NCBI GenBank assembly: GCA_951406725.2
Contig: OX597827.1
Span: 49,848,001 to 49,912,000 of the forward strand
From: Octopus vulgaris
Taxonomy: Eukaryota
DNA length: 64,000 nt
Direction of reading: 5' to 3'
The translations under genes were made by a program, and so were the position numbers. Under the pieces are notes generated by a model. It saw only the letters and a list, made by a program, of their open reading frames with translations, was not told the origin of the DNA and did no database searches. Of the stretch, positions 818-60,935 are shown one piece after another (within the stretch, counting starts at the first letter, position 1; each line of letters begins with the position of its first letter).

Positions 818-1225
818 TAGGCGTAGGAGTGGCTGTGTGGTAAGTAGCTTGTTTACCAACCACATGGTTCAGGGTTCAGTCCCACTGCGTGACACATTGG
901 GCAAGTGTCTTCTACTATAGCCTCGGGCCGACCAAAGCCTTGTGAGTGGATTTGGTAGACGGAAACTGAAAGAAGCCCGTCGTATATATGTATATATCCA
1001 TGCTTGTGTGTGTTTGTGTGTCTGAGTTTGTCCCCCTAGCATTGCTTGACAACCGATGCTGGTGTGTTTATGTCCCCGTTACTTAGCGGTTCGGCAAAAG
1101 AGACCGATAGAATAAGTACTGGGCTTACAAAAGAATATGTCCCGGGGTCGAGTTGCTCGATTAAAGGCGGTGCTCCAGCATGGCCGCAGTCAAATGACTG
1201 AAACAAGTAAAAGAGTAAAAGAGAA
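818..1225 (+). mobile_element. tRNA-derived SINE family A, full length
   Basis: Head GGCGTAGGAGTGGCTGTGTGGTAAG (A box) ... GGTTCAGTCCC (B box), central (TA)/(TG) tract, tail GGCGGTGCTCCAGCATGGCCGCAGTCAAATGACTGAAACAAGTAAAAGAG. Many copies in the window. Confidence 0.85.
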
Positions 1226-1422
1226 AAATAATAATATATGTGTGTACTTGTATGTGTGAATGTGTGTATGCGCGTGTGTGTATGTGTGTGTATGTGTGTG
1301 TGTGTTCATATTTGAGATATTTGGTGACATTGATATTTTAAATACACCACTGTGTGTGATATTAAAGCAAGTATTCTAATAACAATAACGCAGTCTCATA
1401 CAAACATGTAAAAACAAACATA

Positions 1423-1481
1423 AACACACCAGCATCGGTTGTCAAGCAATGCTAGGGGGACAAACACAGACACACAAACAT

Positions 1482-1566
<85 letters not shown>

Positions 1567-1742
1567 CATACATATATACGACGGGCTTCTTTCAGTTTCC
1601 GTCTAACAAATCCACTCACAAGGCTTTGGTCGGCCCGAGGCTATAGTAGAAGACACCTGCCCAAGGTGCCACGCAGTGGGACTGAACCCGGAACCATGTG
1701 GTTGGTAAACAAGCTACTTACCACACAGCCACTCCTGCGCCT
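1423..1742 (-). mobile_element. SINE family A (3'-truncated)
   Basis: Reverse complement of 818-1075 with an expanded internal (TA)n(TG)n tract. Confidence 0.85.
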
Positions 1743-1984
1743 ATATTTCTCTTACATGTAGCAACATTATTTATAGGACACAGACAGACGCACACTGACA
1801 TACATAGATGTATGTATAATATATGTGCTCGAATGTGAATGTATGTATAGTATATGTGCTCATGTGCATATATATATATATATATACATATCGATAGATA
1901 CTTACATACATATGTACACACAAATGCACACGCGTAGAGACACATACATGTATAAGTGTATGTATATGTATTATATGTATATGC

Positions 1985-2020
<36 letters not shown>

Positions 2021-2299
2021 GTAGGTGTGTTTGTGTGTGTGTGCGTGTTTGTTTGCATATTATATGTTAAGTCTCTTGACATACATATGTAGAAAGGGTA
2101 TCACAATTAGCAAAGAAAAACCTTCGAGCAGTGGAGGCATAGAAAAATCTAGATCATCTCACTCCACTCTCTATTTTTCCTATTCGTATTTTCAATCCAA
2201 CCTTATTCCACATTCCCTTGAGACTAACTGGTGTTTTAATCGTAATATGCAGAAAAGTACGCCTAAGTACTAGTTTTACAACCAATTAGAACTATTAAA

Positions 2300-2640
2300 T
2301 CTTGTGCTTCATATGTATTATGTAGTACATTTATCATTTCTGGAAACATGCAGACTAGACCAAATTATACCGGACGGTCTTATGTCAATTATACCAATGT
2401 GTGCATCTCGGCCTTACGCGTCATTGCTTCAAAAGTTTAAATTGATTTCACATAATGGAAGTTATCATTGAACAGTATCTTTCAAAATTAGTATTGCTTG
2501 GTGCAGACATTAAGGAGAATTTGAGTGTCCTTGAACAGGTATGTTCTTCAAAAAATCGTTTCAAGTATTTCTGTAATTGTGAGATGAACTTTGAAAAAAT
2601 GGAAATTTCGTCTCCGAAGCCAAAAGTGAAAAGAAGCTGA
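2300..2640 (+). pseudogene. Probable N-terminal ORF fragment of a Penelope-like element
   Basis: VVHLSFLETCRLDQIIPDGL resembles the HxxFLxxCxxxxxIPxGL N-terminal motif of PLE ORFs. Continues as the ORF 2455-2640. Confidence 0.45.
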
Positions 2641-2859
2641 AAAAGCGGATTTTCCATTCTTCTGGGCAAGGGAACATTTTGGTTGAGAAAATGCCAAACC
2701 AAATGTCCAAACAAGGGAAAAACACCATGAATGCATCCAGAAGAGAAAAAAAACAATATAACAAATGTAAGAAAAGGCAAGTACAAATATAAGAAAATAG
2801 CAGGTACTGAAGGCTAGTTTTTATATATAAATGTAGTTTTACAAAATCTCTTGGGCCAG

Positions 2860-4222
2860 TGGTCTCGACGACCACTGCGGGTTGTCGTTCCGTGTGTTGG
2901 TGGAAGTGGAGATGACGTGTGTGAAGCGGTGTGTATGTTGGGGTGGGTATATGAGGCTCCGGAGTATAAGCATCTGTATGGGATCTTTTAAGTCTATCAA
3001 CAGAGACGGTGTCTCTGGAACCATTGCAGTCAATCGTGAAATGTTTGTTAGAACGAGAAAGAAAACAATAAGGTCCTGAGTAAGGTTGAGTGAAAGGACT
3101 TCTCACGACGTCGTTTCTGACGAAAACGTGGGTTTACGAGGCCATATCCCTCGGGACCGCAGGTTTCACGATTTGATGCCAAGTGTTCATTGGTGGCTGG
3201 GCTTGAAGATAAGTACGAAAGCGGTTCCTATAAAGAGCAGGATCCTGAGTCGGAAGGTTTGCTGGGGCAAGTACCAGCCCAATGAAGTCCGAATGCCGAC
3301 AAGTACTATGGGGAGGTACTCGAACCACCGTTGATTATCAGAGTAAGCATGAAACCCGGCTTTCAACTGCCGATGGAAGCGCTCCACTATTCCATTGGAT
3401 GCAGGATGGTAGCTTGTAGTACGGACCCGTTGGGCACCGATGATCTTAGTAAGTTCCAAGAAAAGGTGGGACTCGAACTGCCTACCACGGTCTGTAGTGA
3501 TGGTGATATGAACACTGTAGCGTGATATCCAAGGCTCGCGCTACAGAGTAAGCAGAAATATCAATTAGAGGAATGGCTTCGGGTCAACGAGTGAAACGAT
3601 CAATGCAAGTAAGAATGTAAGTATATCCTTGACTGACAGGCCAGGTCCAACAAGATCAATGTGATTATGGCGGAAGCGAGTGTCTGGTGTGCTGAAAGTG
3701 CTGAGGGGTGCACCTTCAACCTTTGACAGTGGAGGCAAGAACGAGACCAGCCAGTGATGTCATGCCTCATATTTGGCCAGAAGAATCTAACCGTAATGAG
3801 TTTCACCGATACTGAGGCTCCAGGATTCGATACATTATGCTGGAGTTCGAGTACAACAGCTCGTCTATGAGTATTTAGGACGAAAGGACGAGGGGAATCT
3901 GTCGAGATGCCACACAAGATCATCTAGTCGGAGATTAGTACAGGCAAGTAGTTAAATTTGCACGTGCAAACTCTGGTGAAGTTATCTCGAGTGAGTGCAG
4001 AGGATGATGCTGTGAGGACAAAACATTCAGATCAATATCCATAGTGGACGCGAAAGAATTGATCGGCAGGCGGGACAATGCATCTGCAGTAGTGTTTTGA
4101 ACACCAGAGATGAGTTGAATATCGCTGGTGAACTGCGATATAAAGTCCAGATGTCGAGTCTCTCTCGGTGAGTACTTTTCCGGATTGGACCGCAAGGCAA
4201 AAATATGTTTATTGTCAGGTTA
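2860..4222 (-). mobile_element. Degenerate Ty3/Gypsy pol fragment (RNase H end, integrase H2C2, core, GPY/F)
   Basis: KYSPRETRHLDFISQFTSDIQLISGVQNTTADALSRL; FFWPNMRHDITGWSRSCLHCQR; TTSYHPASNGIVERFHRQLKA; QPYSGPY...DTVSVDRLK. Frameshifted. Confidence 0.92.
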
Positions 4223-4224
4223 AT

Positions 4225-4590
4225 CCGGAAAAAGGAGATTCCTTCATAATTAGAGTATTCTTTTTTGTCTCCTTAAAAAAAATCACTAAATGTTTATCAC
4301 TCCAGTGTCTTTCCAGAGTTCCAAGCCATCCGGTATGTACTAGTCAGCCAGTGAATAACTTCTTTATTGAAAGCTTCTAGCATCACAGGCCGAATCTCAT
4401 CCTTCCTAGCAAATTTTCTTCATTTGGGCACTTTAATCGCCTCTATAACTTCAGCCTCTGTGAGCTTACTTTTTGCTCCTAGATGTACTTCATATCCACC
4501 AGAAGACTTTGTTGTGACTGGATTTGAGAATTCTGCAAAGTATTCCCTCTACCTTCCTCCCAAGGATGCTTTTTCTCTGGGAGAGAACAC
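4225..4590 (-). mobile_element. RTE-type LINE ORF2 fragment (upstream of and into RT domains 0-1)
   Basis: Minus-strand [10 protein letters not shown]...[33 protein letters not shown]...SNYEGIS. Contains stops and frameshifts. Confidence 0.7.
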
Positions 4591-4817
4591 CAGCCGAGTT
4601 CTTAATGGCAGGTGTGGAAGAAAGTTTCTAATTACGAAGTCAGTGTGTGTTGTGCCAGAATACTTTATTAGCCGATCTAAAGTCAGAGTCCAGTACAACC
4701 CCGTTGTGTATATATATGTTTATACAAATATACACGCACACACACGCACGGATGCATACACACACAAACACGTATATGCGTGCATGTATGTATACACGCA
4801 TACATATATATATATAT

Positions 4818-4897
<80 letters not shown>

Positions 4898-4899
<2 letters not shown>

Positions 4900-5158
4900 C
4901 ACCGTGATCACTGTGACCGACCAGGCTATCAGATGTTGCAACACATTGCTGGTCACAATGCGCTTCGCATTAAGCGAGCAGGCCAACAGAAGAAAGAGTG
5001 AGAGAAAGTTGTGGCGAAAGAGTACAGCAGGGATCGCCACCACCCCCTGCCGGAGACTCGTGGAGCTTTAGGTGTTTTCGCTCAATAAACACTCACAACA
5101 CCCGGTCTGAGAATCGAAACCGCGAGTTCGCTGCCCTAACAATTGGGCCATTGCGCCT

Positions 5159-5162
<4 letters not shown>
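4898..5162 (-). mobile_element. tRNA-derived SINE family C
   Basis: Minus head GTGGAGGCGCAATGGCCCAATTGTTAGG..GGTTTCGATTC. A second, more complete copy lies at 5640-5935. Confidence 0.75.
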
Positions 5163-5231
<69 letters not shown>

Positions 5232-5459
5232 AGTATGTATACACACACACACGTGCGCACATACACACGACACGCACACACATACGCACGCATACATACA
5301 CAAATAGATATAAGTAATTATTTGGACTTTGGGTATACGCTTACCTGATGTCATCCACAGTTTTGACATAAATGTCACTGGATCTAAATCGGGAACTCCG
5401 CAGTTTTCGTTGAATTTATAGAGAATGAGGGAAACGGAAAATGTGTGTGTGTGTATGTG

Positions 5460-5514
<55 letters not shown>

Positions 5515-5545
5515 GCGTGTATGTGTATACATATGTGTATGCATG

Positions 5546-5600
<55 letters not shown>

Positions 5601-5639
5601 ATATATATATATACATACATACATGCATACATATATATG

Positions 5640-5935
5640 TGATCACCGTGACCGACCAGGCTATCAGATGTTGTTACACATCACTGGTCACAGTGCACTT
5701 CGCATTGTTTTAGCCTCCAAATGACGCCACCCCGCTGGCAAAGCGAGCAGGCTAACAAAAGAAGGAGTGGGAGAAAGTTGTGGCGAAAGATCACCACCTA
5801 CCCACTGCCGGAGCCTCGGGGAGCTTTAGGTGTTTTCGCTCAATAAACACCCACAACACCCGGTCTGGGAATCGAAACCGCGATCCTACAACCACGAGTC
5901 TGCTGCCCTAACCACTGGGCCATTGTGCCTCCCAC
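5640..5935 (-). mobile_element. tRNA-derived SINE family C
   Basis: TGGCCCAGTGGTTAGG A box and GGTTTCGATTCCC B box. Homologous to 4898-5162. Confidence 0.75.
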
Positions 5936-5982
5936 ATATATATGTATATATATATATGTGTGTGTGCGTGTATATATGTGTG

Positions 5983-48114: not shown

Positions 48115-48119
<5 letters not shown>

Positions 48120-48779
48120 TATTAAAATGCTCAAAATTAATACCTACAATTCTTATTCCAAATTATCATAATTAATACCTTCAATTCTTATTTCAAATCA
48201 TATACTTTACTACGCATGTTTCATGACAACATATTCCTCAATATTGCTGAAATAGAATGTCTCTAAATACAATACCATATTAAAACGATTAGATTGCCAA
48301 TCTTCAGGTCTAGCATATATGAACTTATTTTGCAATTGACATCCTATATAAAGACATGACAAACTAAAGTTATATAGCTAGAAGTTGTTGGAATAATGTT
48401 ACTTTAGTAAATAATGAACAGAAATGTGGAATAAAAGTTGGAAAAAGAAATGTTAGTAAAAAGAAATGTTAACTTATCTGTATGGTAATTTTCTCTCCAT
48501 GAATTAAACATGGCTACCAGCAATCCAACACTGAGAGCTACTTTTTGGGGGAGATAATTCTTATTAACAGTTCATATATGCTAGACCTGAAGATTGGCAA
48601 CATAATCGTTTTAATATGGTATTGTATTTAGAGACATTCTATTTCAGCAATATCAAGGAATATGTTGTCATGAAACACGCGTAGTAAAGTATGATTTGAA
48701 ATAAGAATTGAAGGTATTAATTTTGATAATTCGGAATAAGAATTGTAGGTATTAATTTTGATATGATTTTAATATTTAG
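48115..48779. repeat. Fold-back element: about 210-bp inverted arms with a 240-bp spacer, each arm carrying a hammerhead-like motif
   Basis: 48115-48325 is the reverse complement of about 48569-48779. Each arm reads CUGAAGA-U-UGGCAACAUA...UAUGUUGUCA-U-GAAA-CA(C/U)GCG-UA (48587-48683 on +, 48307-48211 on -). Confidence 0.8.
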
Positions 48780-48853: not shown

Positions 48854-48896
<43 letters not shown>

Positions 48897-49262
48897 CAGT
48901 TCTATATTTAAGAGATGAAGAATTATGTACATTATTTACATTTGACAGATATTTGCCCTCATCTTGTTTGTTGTTAACACAATGTTTCAGCTGATATACC
49001 CTCCAGCTTTCATCGGGTGTCTTGGGGAAATTTTGATCCCATGAGTATATGGCGTAGTGATTAAGACCATGGGCTACTAACACCAAGATTCCAAGTTTGA
49101 TTCCAGGCAGTGACCTGAATAATAATATCAAAAAATACCTTAGGAATGAGAACCCAAGTTCGAAATTTCCCCAAGACACCTGATGAAGGCTGGAGGCTTA
49201 TATCAGCCAAAACGTGTTACCAACAAAAGAGGACAAATATCCATCAAATGTAAATAATGTAT
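48897..49262. mobile_element. Inverted pair of PLE pseudo-LTR ends with two hammerhead motifs and a tRNA-like segment
   Basis: Minus copy with HHR 48976-49021 (CCGAUGA-A-AGCUG/CAGCU-GAAACAUU). Plus copy with tRNA-like 49043-49116 (A box TGGCGTAGTG, B box GTTTGATTCC), AAT repeats and HHR 49175-49218 (GAAA mutated to AAAA). Confidence 0.75.
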
Positions 49263-49263
49263 G

Positions 49264-49316
<53 letters not shown>

Positions 49317-53246: not shown

Positions 53247-54134
53247 CATCATCATTATCATCATCATCGTTTAACGTCTGCTTTCCATGCTAGCATGGGT
53301 TGGCCGATTTTGACTGAGGGCTGGTGAGTCAGATGGCTGCACCAGGCACCAATCTTGATCTGGTAGAGTTTCAACACCTGGATGCCCTTTCTAACACCAA
53401 CCACTCCGAGAGTGTAGTGGGTGCTTTTTACATATATATATATATATATATACATATATATATGTACATATATGTATATATATATATATAAACACACCCA
53501 GTCTACGCTGTAAAGTGGTTCACATTAAGAAGGGCACCCAGCTGTAAAAATGATGCCAATGCAGACAGCAGTGGAGCTTGGTGCAGTCTCTACCCTATGC
53601 TTACCAGCTCCTGGCAAACTATCCAACCCATGAAAAAATAGATATTGAATGATGATGATAATGATGACACACACACACACATATAGGTAAGTATATATGT
53701 GTGTGTGTGTATGTATTTGCGTCACTTGTCTTGATATCACAAGCAAGTTGTAAATGAGTGTTATCATCATGCAAGAAGTGTCATTTGTTTCTATTGTTTT
53801 GTGGTAAAAATGTCCTGACATGGGGAAATATTACCTTGCTTTAAGACAAGTGAAGGTGGGTGACAGAAAGCCATCTGACTGTAGAAAATCTACCTCACTG
53901 AATTATATCTGACCCATGCAAACACAGAAAAGTTGATGATAAAACAATTATGGGTGTGTGTATAACTATGTATGAATGCATGTGTGTGTGTGTGTATAGA
54001 TATATATATATATATACAAATATTAATTATAATAAAAGGTTAAAATCAATAATAATATTACCAGGTAGTCAGTGCGGAAATAAAAACCTCATAGGTAATA
54101 ATAGGAAATAAAAACCTCATAGGTAAATTTTACA

Positions 54135-54390
54135 AAATATTTTATAATTATATACATAATTATAAAAAGGGATCGGCTTTACGCCTCACCACGCACTGCA
54201 AGAAATAGACTCCATATGAAGTTAACCAGCCATGTAGATTCATTATTTTCTTTTGCTTGCCTACAATATAGTGTGTTATTCTCGGAGATTTTAAGGTGGT
54301 ACTTGGGGCTTTAGCGCCTATTTCTTGCAGTGCGTGGTAAGCGTAAAGCCGATCCCTAGCTATAATTATGTATATAATTATAAAATATTT
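54135..54390. repeat. Inverted repeat, about 74-bp arms
   Basis: 54135-54208 (...GGGATCGGCTTTACGC..CCACGCACTGCAAGAAATAG) is reverse-complementary to 54318-54390. Confidence 0.8.
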
Positions 54391-55232
54391 TATATATATA
54401 TAGTTAAAATTTATAGACAAACAAAAGATGAAGACAAGTGTATGAACAACAAACAAGTGTATTAGTTTGATGCTTGGGATGATGAAAAAATGTTTTACGT
54501 TTTGAGCGTATGCTCTTCAACGGAAAGGAATAAAAGAAAATAAACAGAGAGAATTTAGCGGTCCAGTATGGCGAATGATTGCATAAAATATATGTATACA
54601 CACCCACAAACACACACATGTGTGTATAGACAGATAGATAGATTATCTTTCATTTTTCTGTCCTACTAACACTCAAGTCACTGCTGTTAGCATGGTAGAA
54701 TGGACTTGAAAGTTAGAATTGCCAATTTAAAAACAAGTTTTTCTATGACAAAGTTTGACAAATATAAATCTTTAGGAGCTGATAAGAAGCAACACATAAC
54801 ATCAGTACAATTACTAATAACAATTGTTTCTGGCATAGGCATTAGGACACAGCTCTGGAGGACGTAGTCGACTATATTAACTACAGTACTTGACTGGTAC
54901 TTCATTTTATTGAAACCCCCTCACCACCACCATCAGATAAATAAAAGGCAAAGTCAGCCTTGATGTTTTTGAACTCAGAGCATAGAGACAGGACAAATCC
55001 CACAAGGAATTTTATTGTTATTAAACAATTTATATCCTTTCATTATCTTCTTCCACTTCAATAGCAATGATAATTATTAAGAATTTTAAATGACAGTAGT
55101 AGTAGTAGTTGTAATAGTAGTAGTAGTAGTAGTAGTAGCAGTAGTAGTAATTTTGATAATATTCCAAAGACAACACCCTCACCAAACCCTACCCCACCCA
55201 CAGAAGAACAACCAAATTCACAAATTCTTATA

Positions 55233-55304
55233 TCATCTTCCTCCAAGACCACTTCCTCCGCTGCCGCCAATACCACCAGAGTCTTGCAAGATGCAGATTT
55301 CCAA
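55233..55304 (-). CDS. GOLGA7: GOLGA7 last coding exon, LEICILQDSGGIGGSGGSGLGGR*
   Basis: TTCCTTAAT branch point followed by CAG acceptor. In frame with the previous exon, resembles human IEITIYEDRGMSSGR*, and ends with TGA at 55235-55233. Confidence 0.9.
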   Translation of the reverse strand: MEICILQDSGGIGGSGGSGLGGR

Positions 55305-55785
55305 CTGGACATCTGATTAAGGAAATATGATTGAATCTGATTAACAAAATGACAAAAGTAAAATTTATCCCAAGTGCAGTAGTTTAGTTGGACTCAACAG
55401 GGAGTAGTTTAATTGAACAGAATACAGTTCAGTCGTCGTGGATTCAGTAGGGTTTAGGTTGGAAATGTAAAACCAGTAAGATGTAGTCTAAAGAAGTTGG
55501 ATATTGTTAGAAGCAGTTTAAATGATAGGAAACCTCAGACAGCTCAGCCACTACAACCACTTGCTAAGTATATACCAAGCCGATGAGAGATTTTCTCCAT
55601 TTGTTTGACTTGCTAAAAGTAATATTAGATAATCCAATTCCTGTTACCCTAAAAATCAGAGAGGGTCATGGCTGGAATGCATTTAATAATAAGTCTATTC
55701 AATCAGGGTGACCCTGAAATTAAATAAAAGATATGTTATTTGTATAGACTGATGGTCCTTATGGCCAATAAAGTAAGGATTATTT

Positions 55786-56252
55786 TGTAGTGACACTACT
55801 GTGTAAGTTTCAGCGCACATGCGCAGAATTGGATTACTTCCAGTTGGCCACCGGAAGTTTTCCTCGTGCACATGTGCAGGAACTGGAACCTAAAAGCCTG
55901 ACCGCTGAATCGGTCTTTCTAGCATGAGCAGCGCTAGCGATCGGACGTGGCTTGACTTTCTCTCAGGGAACAACCCTACACTCAGAGAACCTCACCCCAA
56001 CGAAGCGGGAGCGAACTGACGAATCGTCTTGACTCACACGAGAAAGCATCGCAACCAGTCCTGCGGATTCGGCTGCCGGTTTCCCTACTAGAGATACACG
56101 TGCACTAGTTCTTACCTGTAACCGCAGAATAAACCACCACTTACTGTTGTCGAAGACCGCCCGACTTTGTCTCCGTTTCTTCAACTTAAATTGTATGTGA
56201 CAGGATCAGATCGGACACCCCTCCAGTGTTCCTAAACTCTCATCCTGTTACA
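55786..56252 (+). mobile_element. Solo LTR (Gypsy-like), 467 bp, inside the U12 intron
   Basis: TGTA...TACA termini, 4-bp TSD ATTT (55782-55785 and 56253-56256), internal AATAAA near 56128, and GC-richer than its flanks. Confidence 0.8.
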
Positions 56253-56707
56253 ATTTGTATAGACTGTGCATTCATGAATGATGCACACCACTAAGTAAAT
56301 TTGGAAAAAATATCTTGTGTTTAGTATGGTACTGTTTCTCCTTTCAATTTATGACAAATAGGAAAAAAACTTTGACCAGAATGCTTTGACTTTTAAATAT
56401 TAGAGTAAAATCAGTCAAAATACATTAATATAAAAAACTATCTTTGATTGACTGAATTACATGATATACAGCTATAATTACTAAAGAATAATGTATGTTT
56501 TCTTTGACAAGATAGCCGAAGATAAGGTGGAAAATGGACTCAGTCAAATAAATACAGTACAGTATTAATTAGACATCAATAAGATAAGAAATCAAGTCCT
56601 TTCCAGTTTCTGACTTTTACACTCATATAAGCAACTTTTCCTTCATTTTATTTTGTCTAAAATATTTTCTTCATCAGTATCAACCAAATTCATTTTATAA
56701 CTTATTG

Positions 56708-56739
<32 letters not shown>

Positions 56740-56741
<2 letters not shown>

Positions 56742-56990
56742 TAAAACAGTAAGATAACAAAAGAAAGAAAGAGACCTCAATATTATGTAAATAGAGGAAA
56801 TTTATCTGTAAAATAATATATGACAATTATTCGGTAGCCAAGATAAAACTCCGGGTTTCGGATGCCGAGGTGGAAATCCACACCATCATCTCTTCAGTTA
56901 TCTGGCCATCTGAAAAACGGCCAGATAACTGCATCCGAAACCCGGAGTTTTATTTTGGCTACCGAATAATTGTCATATATATATATATAA
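56740..56990. mobile_element. PLE-type fold-back insertion flanked by (TA)n, in the GOLGA7 U12 intron
   Basis: 56817-56865 is inverted with 56931-56979, and 56895-56907 is inverted with 56919-56931. Contains the hammerhead at 56842-56902. Confidence 0.75.
56842..56902 (-). ncRNA. Type-I minimal hammerhead ribozyme motif (PLE-derived)
   Basis: GAUAA-CUGAAGA-GAUG[..GUGGA/UCCAC..]CAUC-C-GAAA-CCCGGAG-UU-UUAUC. Stem I GAUAA/UUAUC, intact core, GUU cleavage triplet. Confidence 0.75.
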
Positions 56991-57008
56991 AACAGATGAA
57001 AAGGATAC

Positions 57009-57110
57009 TGTTCGCAAACCACGTTCAGCTGGATCTACCAACATTAATCCACGAGAAACATATATTGTTTGATTTTGGTTTTCAATATATCGACCAATCT
57101 TTTTCAAACA
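57009..57110 (-). CDS. GOLGA7: GOLGA7 coding exon (102 nt)
   Basis: cttttgcag|CLKKIGRYIENQNQTIYVSRGLMLVDPAERGLRT|GTATCCTTTT. Matches human [34 protein letters not shown]. Confidence 0.96.
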
Positions 57111-58559
57111 CTGCAAAAGAAGAAATTAGGATGTGACAATAAAAACATTTAACGAGTATGGTATCAGGAAAAGTTAAATGATTTTAGACAGTAAACACTT
57201 TTCAAAACAATTAGTGACCAAATCATGAAAAAAACAAGTGATGAAAAACATATAAAGTAAATAATATACACACGCAAATGAACCCACACATACCTCTCAA
57301 ACACACATAGCACACACTCATACATACACGCACACATTTATACATACATGTACACACACACATTTAATTTTCTATGTGACTACAATTTAAATATAGGGTA
57401 TAATTTTTTTTAAAAGTTAGTTTTAATAATTGGTGATCACAGGCTCCCAACAAAGAGGGATAACCAGTAGATGTTATAGAAAAGCAAGTTTACAATAAAT
57501 AATGCTCTATGGAAAGTGAATTGGTGGTTAGTGAGATGGAAAGACACTGAAAGTGGTGAAGGTGGTTTGTAACTGCTTCCAGCTACTTGTGATATGTTCA
57601 AATGAGAACAATACTCTGGTAGATAGCAGGATCAGTGAAAGTAATTTGGGCTACTAGGTTGAGTTATGTCCTTGAAATGAGGACTAGCGTTTGAAGACTA
57701 ACATTGTATTGTGTATTCAAGTATGAACGACTTAATGTATTTATTGACTGAAACAGCGAAATAACTCATCAGTGTTATTACTGAAACAAAGTGGTCCATC
57801 AACAGAGAAGCATGAAGTCAGACCCCTATTTCTCTTCCTGAAATGAGTAATACAAACATCTTTCTTAAGCAGACACTTTTCTTGTAGGCTAATATTTGTC
57901 TAAAATATTTTCTTCATCAGTAGCTGAGCCAATGACACTTTTGTACAGCGAGAAACATTATTTCTTGCTCAGTGAACTGATGTAAGGGTTGGAGTAACAT
58001 GTGACATGAAATATTTTTTGGATGCAGTTGCAAATAAATAACAAAAGGTCTAATATCACAAAACAGCCTCTGACCTTACATGAAGCAGATGACTATCAAT
58101 CATCGCATCAAGATTTAGATGTTTGGTTTCTGTATATGGAACAGCTTAAAAAAAAAAAAGCAACTGAGACCTGCAGGCTTCTTTATTCTCCTTCAGAATT
58201 GGACTACAAATGTCTCTCTTGTACAAGTTTCATTTTCCTGTAAGGTATGATTTTCTTACTGCCATTCAAACTTGTTTTACAATATGCTGTGTATTCAAAT
58301 AATATATGTATGAACAGCTTTAAATGTGTTGACCACTATAAACATGAGACACATAGGTAGTATGTTTTCAAAAATAGGGAGAGATTCTTGAGAGAGACTT
58401 GTGATTTTGGTGACGATAGAGTCATGCTCTGAAATTTACTGTATATGAATGATGTCAAATAAACCATTAAGGAAAGGTTAACCTCTTTTTCTTTCTTTTT
58501 TTGCTAGGTCAAGACGATGAAATTAATTCTACTGAAACTACTGCAAGTTGATAACTGTA

Positions 58560-59325: not shown

Positions 59326-59478
59326 CTTTTCATAGTGAGTGTCCACACACAAATAGGAAAGATATGCAGTGAGGCAAGCAAAACAGCTTTCACAATAGGT
59401 ACTACCACCCAAGCTTTCGGCTTCTTTGTACATTTCATTGATGGTGTTTATTGTTTCTGCAAATGTTGATCTTTCAAT
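59326..59478 (-). CDS. GOLGA7: GOLGA7 coding exon (153 nt)
   Basis: ttccag|IERSTFAETINTINEMYKEAESLGGSTYCESCFACLTAYLSYLCVDTHYEK|gtatt. Matches human IDRQQFEETV...EAEKLGG..Y.EGCLACLTAY....THYEK, including the palmitoylated CxxC cysteines. Phase 0/0. Confidence 0.96.
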
Positions 59479-60815: not shown

Positions 60816-60935
60816 CCTTCCTTCCAATTCAGCAGGAAATTTTGTCTGGAATCTGACTGGGGTGCCATCTGTATAGTCTCGCTGAATGAAAACTTTAATT
60901 CCATTAGGTTGTGGAATCCTGGATATATCCTCCAT
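60816..60935 (-). CDS. GOLGA7: Golgin subfamily A member 7 (GCP16/ERF4 family), first visible coding exon; the exon itself starts at 60948
   Basis: Minus-strand translation [40 protein letters not shown] matches the KVFIQRDY...[10 protein letters not shown] motif of GOLGA7. Acceptor ttcttctttcag precedes 60948; donor GTTAGT starts at 60815. The frame is open upstream of the ATG (T GAG GCC ATA CCA ATG), so an upstream coding exon is possible. Confidence 0.93.

Follow-up and report, generated by a model that had tools for sequence, protein, structure and literature searches.

A truncated Penelope-like element carrying a hammerhead motif and its own inverted arm in the U12-type intron of octopus GOLGA7

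The insertion that lies just inside the U12-type intron of GOLGA7 is read here as a truncated Penelope-like element (PLE) that landed within a (TA)n run and likely rides along as a neutral passenger, with a ribozyme predicted not to cleave; the probability of this reading is put at about 85%. It lies within a 64-kb stretch of octopus DNA, which was analysed at its full length and is called the window. A first-pass annotation had described a sense-strand hammerhead with a built-in antisense arm at this place. That observation stands and its coordinates hold, but the PLE repeat family behind both the motif and the arm had been missed. The PLE stub of the GOLGA7 intron is a real feature of an ordinary kind, and we infer that the insertion is neutral for splicing.

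The coding exons of GOLGA7 in the window and the splice signals of the host intron are as follows.

60816–60935, minus strand: GOLGA7 coding exon, starting at the ATG of P0002 (spliced-frame match)
59326–59478, minus strand: GOLGA7 coding exon, with a 100% match to P0001, a protein that carries the name golgin subfamily A member 7-like
57009–57110, minus strand: GOLGA7 coding exon preceding the U12-type intron (Pfam Erf4, E 4e-5, with the exon alone)
56999–57008, minus strand: U12-type 5' splice site GTATCCTTTT, from the sequence
55305–55325, minus strand: U12-type branch point TTTCCTTAAT (55325–55316) and acceptor AG (55306–55305)
55233–55304, minus strand: final GOLGA7 coding exon (LEICILQ...GGR*), equal to the end of P0002

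P0002, whose source name is golgin subfamily A member 7, is the spliced frame across the U12-type intron and matches Pfam Erf4 with an E-value of 3e-35. The intron measures 1,704 nt (57008–55305) and combines a donor of the form RTATCCTTT, a CCTTAA branch point near the acceptor and a frame that stays intact after splicing. The U12 donor that had been placed at 57008 is borne out, as its ten letters directly follow the exon end at 57009 and the spliced frame equals P0002. Human GOLGA7 presumably has a U12 intron at the equivalent place, and a literature search on GOLGA7 and minor introns gave no paper on the subject. The two introns flanking exon 57110–57009 share a 28-nt identical direct repeat, found at 56652–56679 and at 57895–57922.

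The element itself comprises 243 bases, from 56980 to 56738, flanked by two (TA)n runs, and has the following parts.

56975–56988, no strand assigned: (TA)n run on the donor side, the target site, from the sequence
56710–56738, no strand assigned: (TA)n run on the far side, from the sequence
56931–56980, plus strand (antisense in the pre-mRNA): long part of an inverted second pLTR copy, pairing with 56816–56865 at 49 of 50 positions
56919–56930, plus strand: short part of the same inverted copy, pairing with 56896–56907
56738–56918, minus strand: forward, 5'-truncated PLE pLTR copy, with 91–96% identity to the best other genomic copies
56738–56799, minus strand: 62-nt one-sided 'tail' bounded by positions 56800 and 56738, the two 3' end sites that are fixed in the family
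56837–56906, minus strand: type I hammerhead of the pLTR, with stem I GCCA-GAUAA / UUAUC-U-UGGC, a short stem III and a predicted cut after U56847

The upstream arm had been interpreted as an internally deleted inverted copy, and this proved correct: an internal deletion of ~30 nt, covering the region of stem-loop II, precedes the short part. Of the pairing claimed for it (13 bp plus about 49 bp), the long part is confirmed, while the short helix, 56930–56919 with 56896–56907, amounts to 12 bp, the thirteenth pair (C56931–G56895) competing with the long helix. The arm begins at intron position +29 and leaves the donor outside the helix. The feature does not end at 56817; its 3' tail continues to 56738. 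The forward copy in the window thus carries the tail, and the inverted arm ends 16 nt before the short end site, within the TA run. The fold of a 201-nt stretch has a z-score of -16.7, none of 200 shuffles being equally stable. Two further inverted repeats occur in the window, one of ~210 nt with 94% identity, which adjoins TA runs (48116–48778), and one with arms of 54 and 24 nt, 93–96% identical, around a 109-nt spacer (54131–54394).

The hammerhead had been claimed to lie in pre-mRNA sense with a predicted cut after 56847, and all its coordinates are confirmed: C3–A9 (CUGAAGA) at 56897–56891, GAAA at 56859–56856, U16.1 at 56848 and H17 at 56847. It is the sole match of a type I descriptor within the 64-kb window, in which Rfam gave no match at its gathering threshold. 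The description of the motif as near-intact is right for the core, with 13 of 13 letters, the A15.1–U16.1 pair and the triplet GUU, and needs two caveats. The G10.1–C11.1 pair requires an adjacent bulged C, and this unpaired C in stem II (56861 in the window) is family-wide, being found in 119 of 122 arms. A T>C change in stem III at 56854 is nearly private to the window copy, as 119 of 123 arms have T, and a variant 22-mer with this change has 33 exact matches genome-wide. The full 13-letter core is kept in 29 of the 91 arms that span the whole hammerhead, and most core failures belong to a lineage of the family with U4C and do not reflect decay. Stem III is only 2 bp long and depends on palindrome pairing in a dimer; with the T>C change at 56854, the window copy can form 6 of the 9 pairs of this palindrome, where typical copies form 8 of 9. 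No further sense copy of the family that could act as dimer partner was found within the 64-kb window, so that the hammerhead has neither a stable stem III nor a partner.

Genome-wide searches have revealed that this anatomy belongs to a large family. Two core 17-mers gave 6,501 hits in the genome, 2,516 with CUGAAGA (control, 1) and 3,985 with CCGAAGA (control, 0), counts that include exact matches only and are hence lower bounds on the number of arms. The U4C 17-mer therefore outnumbers the canonical one, and the lineage whose core is non-canonical has been at least as successful in spreading as the canonical lineage. A search of the genome with the 176-nt hairpin returned 3,157 first-look candidates, 40 of which were scored. 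All 29 other loci obtained with this query showed a TA run, an inverted arm, a junction differing from copy to copy and a forward copy. As this set is biased by its query, two fairer sets were built. With a forward-only query, an upstream inverted arm was present in 17 of 29 loci (two of these loci are a duplicated pair and one is shared with the hairpin-query set). Among 40 loci taken in chromosome order by an exact core 17-mer, 18 had the arm, 19 the intact core pattern and 9 both; by eye, the arm extends into the hammerhead in 16 of the 18 arms and in 8 of the 9 loci positive for both. Neighbouring copies less than 3.5 kb apart were back-to-back in 27 cases and face-to-face in 1, among the first 100 of the matches listed. 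The 5' junctions differ from copy to copy, and the 3' ends are fixed: of 128 arms, 44 end at the equivalent of 56800 and 67 at the equivalent of 56743–56738 (together 111/128), the two sites lying 57–62 nt apart across arms. Both fixed sites fall on ATAAATT, 62 nt apart, in the window (56800 and 56738) and at loci L127, L128, L134, L135 and L137. This motif may define the two start sites of reverse transcription.

The assignment to PLEs comes from longer copies, which were walked upstream to an ORF that combines motifs of reverse transcriptase (RT) with a linker of the form CxC..CPLxGxC and an endonuclease of GIY-YIG type (DIVDF, MGS, YKDD, CSC..CPLNGAC and IIYEA..KYVG). The nearest Atlas clusters of this ORF carry HTH_animal, RVT_1 and GIY-YIG, with scores of 0.94–0.95, and a search at E <= 1e-30 yielded 130 relatives. 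Pfam hmmscan returned no family for the family ORF and six relatives, and sequence searches of NCBIfam and PDB with the family ORF gave no significant match; therefore, the PLE identity rests on the motifs, the Atlas clusters and the architecture. In 6 of 15 loci the hammerhead and tail precede the ORF start by ~105 nt; they follow the ORF in loci L081/L082 and lie on both sides of it in the array of L151/L152. Direct pseudo-LTRs, tandem or partial-tandem, are present, and so are the inverted 5'-truncated copy at the 5' end (in the window and at family loci) and, on one side only, an optional tail bounded by two RT start sites. RT and, at the C terminus, a GIY-YIG domain occupy one ORF in the long copies, and the window copy has no ORF.

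PLEs typically show an inverted 5'-truncated copy at their 5' end, a one-sided tail of 30–40 bp and (TA)n targets, according to the available part of Craig et al. (PMC8557442). The portion at hand of Frangieh et al. (PMC11167929) reports that the PLE protein cleaves and extends both strands, that RT starts at the two sites bounding the tail, and that hammerhead mutants leave PLE insertion in vitro unimpaired. As far as these two sources describe them, endonuclease-bearing PLEs with a C-terminal GIY-YIG and a linker of Neptune/Nematis type resemble the octopus family in their pLTR-ORF-pLTR tandems and in the hammerhead of the pLTR. The likeness extends to the order of RT, Zn-finger-like linker and GIY-YIG, the 5' truncation, the inverted 5' copy, the two fixed 3' ends and the (TA)n targets. 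Judged by its letters, the linker motif points away from the Penelope and Poseidon clades. The tail is different, with 62 nt in the octopus family and a quoted 30–40 nt in the part of PMC8557442 available; and priming in the octopus family could involve 2–3 nt of TA microhomology, whereas the anole element is described in PMC11167929, in the portion available, as starting RT without homology. The literature searched gave no paper on the octopus family, which may already be catalogued in repeat libraries such as Repbase or Dfam; cephalopod PLE families, or the hammerhead variant, may also appear in the supplements of PMC8557442 and PMC4209133. Traces of other families were also seen. At L082:9235–9675, 1 kb from a family copy, a frame with a related linker and a GIY-YIG-type motif belongs to a different PLE family. 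In the window, a more decayed hairpin insertion between TA runs (48857–49306) has arms that are 73% alike; its minus strand shows, at 49016, the hammerhead-like string CCGAUGA..GAAAC, and it is probably another PLE family.

The hammerhead can be compared with three known groups. Metazoan PLE hammerheads, in the available part of Cervera and de la Pena 2014 (PMC4209133), occur as opposite-strand pairs 100–700 bp apart. They share with the octopus family the type I form, a possible G10.1–C11.1 closing pair, a small palindromic helix III suited to a dimer fold and an occurrence mostly as lone motifs or opposite-strand pairs derived from truncated PLEs. Compared with what that source describes, the octopus family lacks the unpaired base between A9 and G10.1 and has an unpaired C beside C11.1 instead, its stem I is longer and interrupted, and its majority lineage is U4C. 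The type I hammerhead of non-LTR retrozymes, in the portion of bioRxiv 10.64898/2026.07.22.740005 available, likewise comes from the pLTR of a PLE, but these retrozymes are head-to-tail tandems, whereas the window copy consists of one inverted pair. The RECK and C10orf118 hammerheads and the HDV-like ribozyme of CPEB3 also place a self-cleaving motif in an intron in pre-mRNA sense; these domesticated ribozymes are described, in the parts of PMC3088659 and PMC10761166 available, as single-copy, conserved across amniotes or mammals and cleaving as monomers. The window hammerhead, in contrast, belongs to a multi-thousand-copy repeat and is paired to its own antisense copy.

Tandem arrays of the octopus family were observed at two places. 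Locus L150 (C16:47251500–47258500) holds, at 1196–5945, a head-to-tail array of 41.5 copies of a 109-nt unit with 96% matches, made of the hammerhead region of the family. Each unit extends from a point shortly ahead of stem I to the short 3' end site of the family. The core reads CUGAAGA in 28 units, and an inverted copy closes the array. This array looks like a non-LTR retrozyme born of a PLE pLTR, in which dimer cleavage would be possible. At L151/L152 (C1:57206500–57225500), a tandem and inverted array of full-length copies has a period of ~2,580 nt and open frames of 664–717 codons, and all six of its cores read CCGAAGA (U4C).

The arm is a by-product of PLE insertion, of a kind already described for PLEs, because the same inverted arm occurs at 18 of 40 loci and arm ends fall at two fixed sites, the signature of the PLE 'tail'. 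The proposed sequence of events would start with the PLE endonuclease cutting both strands at the TA run of the GOLGA7 intron. Each cut would then prime reverse transcription from one of the two internal start sites of the family, both cDNAs would stop early and be joined 5' to 5', and a deletion of ~30 nt, later or concurrent, would shorten one arm. TA microhomology at the ATAAATT ends may help priming, although this is a guess drawn from the letters. Over 46 columns, arms differ on average by 2.56 within a locus (48 loci) and by 3.99 between loci; the two arms of the window differ in 1 column, and by at least 4 from all 94 other arms. Such likeness within a locus is as expected if both arms come from one template or if conversion takes place between them.

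The history of the site was followed in DNA-run contigs of related organisms. At the two flanking TA runs, the contigs break in each of organisms A, B, D and E. The summed depth over the element, ~10^4 times that of the flanks in these four, shows that it is a repeat and does not give its copy number. In one contig from organism D, 58 letters adjoining the TA run on the donor side show no alignment to the arm, which weakly hints that the element is absent there. The U12 intron also contains a 471-nt repeat (55782–56252), which is present in organisms A, B and D and cleanly skipped in organism E, where 55781 is joined to 56253; its absence there indicates that this intron gains repeats over short times.

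Folding was predicted with ViennaRNA, whose nearest-neighbour model ignores tertiary contacts and proteins. The cleaving fold lies 5–10 kcal/mol above the ensemble for the motif alone, 21–32 kcal/mol with the short arm and 58.7–77.1 kcal/mol for the whole element at 10–37 °C. The 5' strand of stem I is paired to the short arm with a mean probability of 0.94–0.99 at all seven transcript lengths tested. The three-helix fold is thus predicted to be inaccessible in the native transcript, in a model in which tertiary contacts are ignored, and the gap is far above what such contacts and proteins usually contribute. How accessible the donor is was also computed, both for the intron carrying the element and for the intron lacking it, but these values hinge on local pairing that arises by chance and were set aside. 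In the pre-mRNA, the arm would be transcribed first and would capture the 5' strand of stem I on its appearance, then close progressively into a ~50-bp helix that covers both GAAA and the cleavage site. Splicing would remove the intron with the hairpin inside, leaving at most an ADAR-editable duplex in the discarded intron. In the portion available of PMC4209133, a single PLE hammerhead did not cleave in vitro and dimers were weak, and in that of PMC11167929 the anole PLE hammerhead cleaves only with protein help and is dispensable for insertion. By analogy, the window hammerhead is probably inactive as a lone motif.

It had been suggested that the insertion is tolerated because the fold-back silences the ribozyme. 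This fits the predicted folding, but the arm is standard in the family and no explanation specific to this locus is needed. A related proposal treats the arm as selected for, intronic sense-strand hammerheads being purged unless they arrive with an antisense arm. The complete silencing predicted for the arm agrees with it, and so does the depletion of retrozyme copies from Xenopus introns reported in the available part of bioRxiv 10.64898/2026.07.22.740005. However, there is little to silence, since the lone PLE hammerheads described in the portion of PMC4209133 available are inactive and the window palindrome is reduced, and about half of the family copies have the arm whatever the context; such selection is distinctly improbable. 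The earlier suggestion of a switch between hairpin and self-cleavage, flipped by editing or temperature and regulating a slowly spliced intron, could draw on the intact core letters, the sense orientation and the adjoining U12 donor. It finds no support in the folding results, in which the gap shrinks only from 77 to 59 kcal/mol on warming from 10 to 37 °C, stays at 60–69 kcal/mol with all 19 arm A read as G, at 42–49 kcal/mol with all 19 arm adenosines unable to pair, and at 50 kcal/mol or more with half of them unable to pair (30 random draws). The inhibitory arm is moreover transcribed first, the 64-kb window offers no dimer partner and the anatomy is family-wide. With so large a predicted margin, a temperature or editing switch is very unlikely.

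An effect on splicing that needs no cleavage has also been considered, namely that the PLE-derived duplex of ~50 bp changes the rate of minor-intron splicing, for example via ADAR or dsRNA-binding proteins. Editing is abundant in coleoids, U12 introns are spliced slowly, and the helix is long, near-perfect and very near the donor. The donor nevertheless remains outside the helix, hundreds to thousands of similar hairpins exist genome-wide, and the intron tolerates insertions, as with the 471-nt repeat skipped in organism E, all of which makes the effect unlikely. Co-option of the hairpin as a control on how fast the GOLGA7 minor intron is spliced, through ADAR binding or editing and not through cleavage, seems slightly less likely still. 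As to the nature of the element, a short hairpin between TA runs would also suit a MITE-like DNA transposon with terminal inverted repeats and a hammerhead arisen by chance. This candidate was rejected and keeps next to no probability: the symmetric termini and fixed internal sequence of such a transposon are not seen, the arms being asymmetric with two different fixed ends and the central junction different in every copy, and about half of the copies are armless and copies continue into the RT-GIY-YIG ORF. The truncated PLE passenger remains the preferred reading, with some findings counting against it. A distance of +29 from the U12 donor is closer than that of most random insertions would be, the window copy has kept an intact 13-letter core, and proteins, which the folding model ignores, assist cleavage by the anole PLE hammerhead (PMC11167929).

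As it stands, the insertion in the GOLGA7 intron matters little, being one among thousands of PLE stubs; should its hairpin prove to tune U12 splicing, it would exemplify something rare, a minor intron under the influence of a duplex of transposon origin. The combination of a ribozyme with an antisense arm is the default product of Penelope-like insertion, which is a useful warning. The L150 array is of more interest than the GOLGA7 insertion, and the octopus family as a whole is a good natural data set for PLE insertion, with two fixed RT start sites and arms placed back to back, tandem arrays that are intact, a U4C lineage more numerous than its canonical counterpart, and a retrozyme-like array whose boundary falls exactly on one of the RT start sites.
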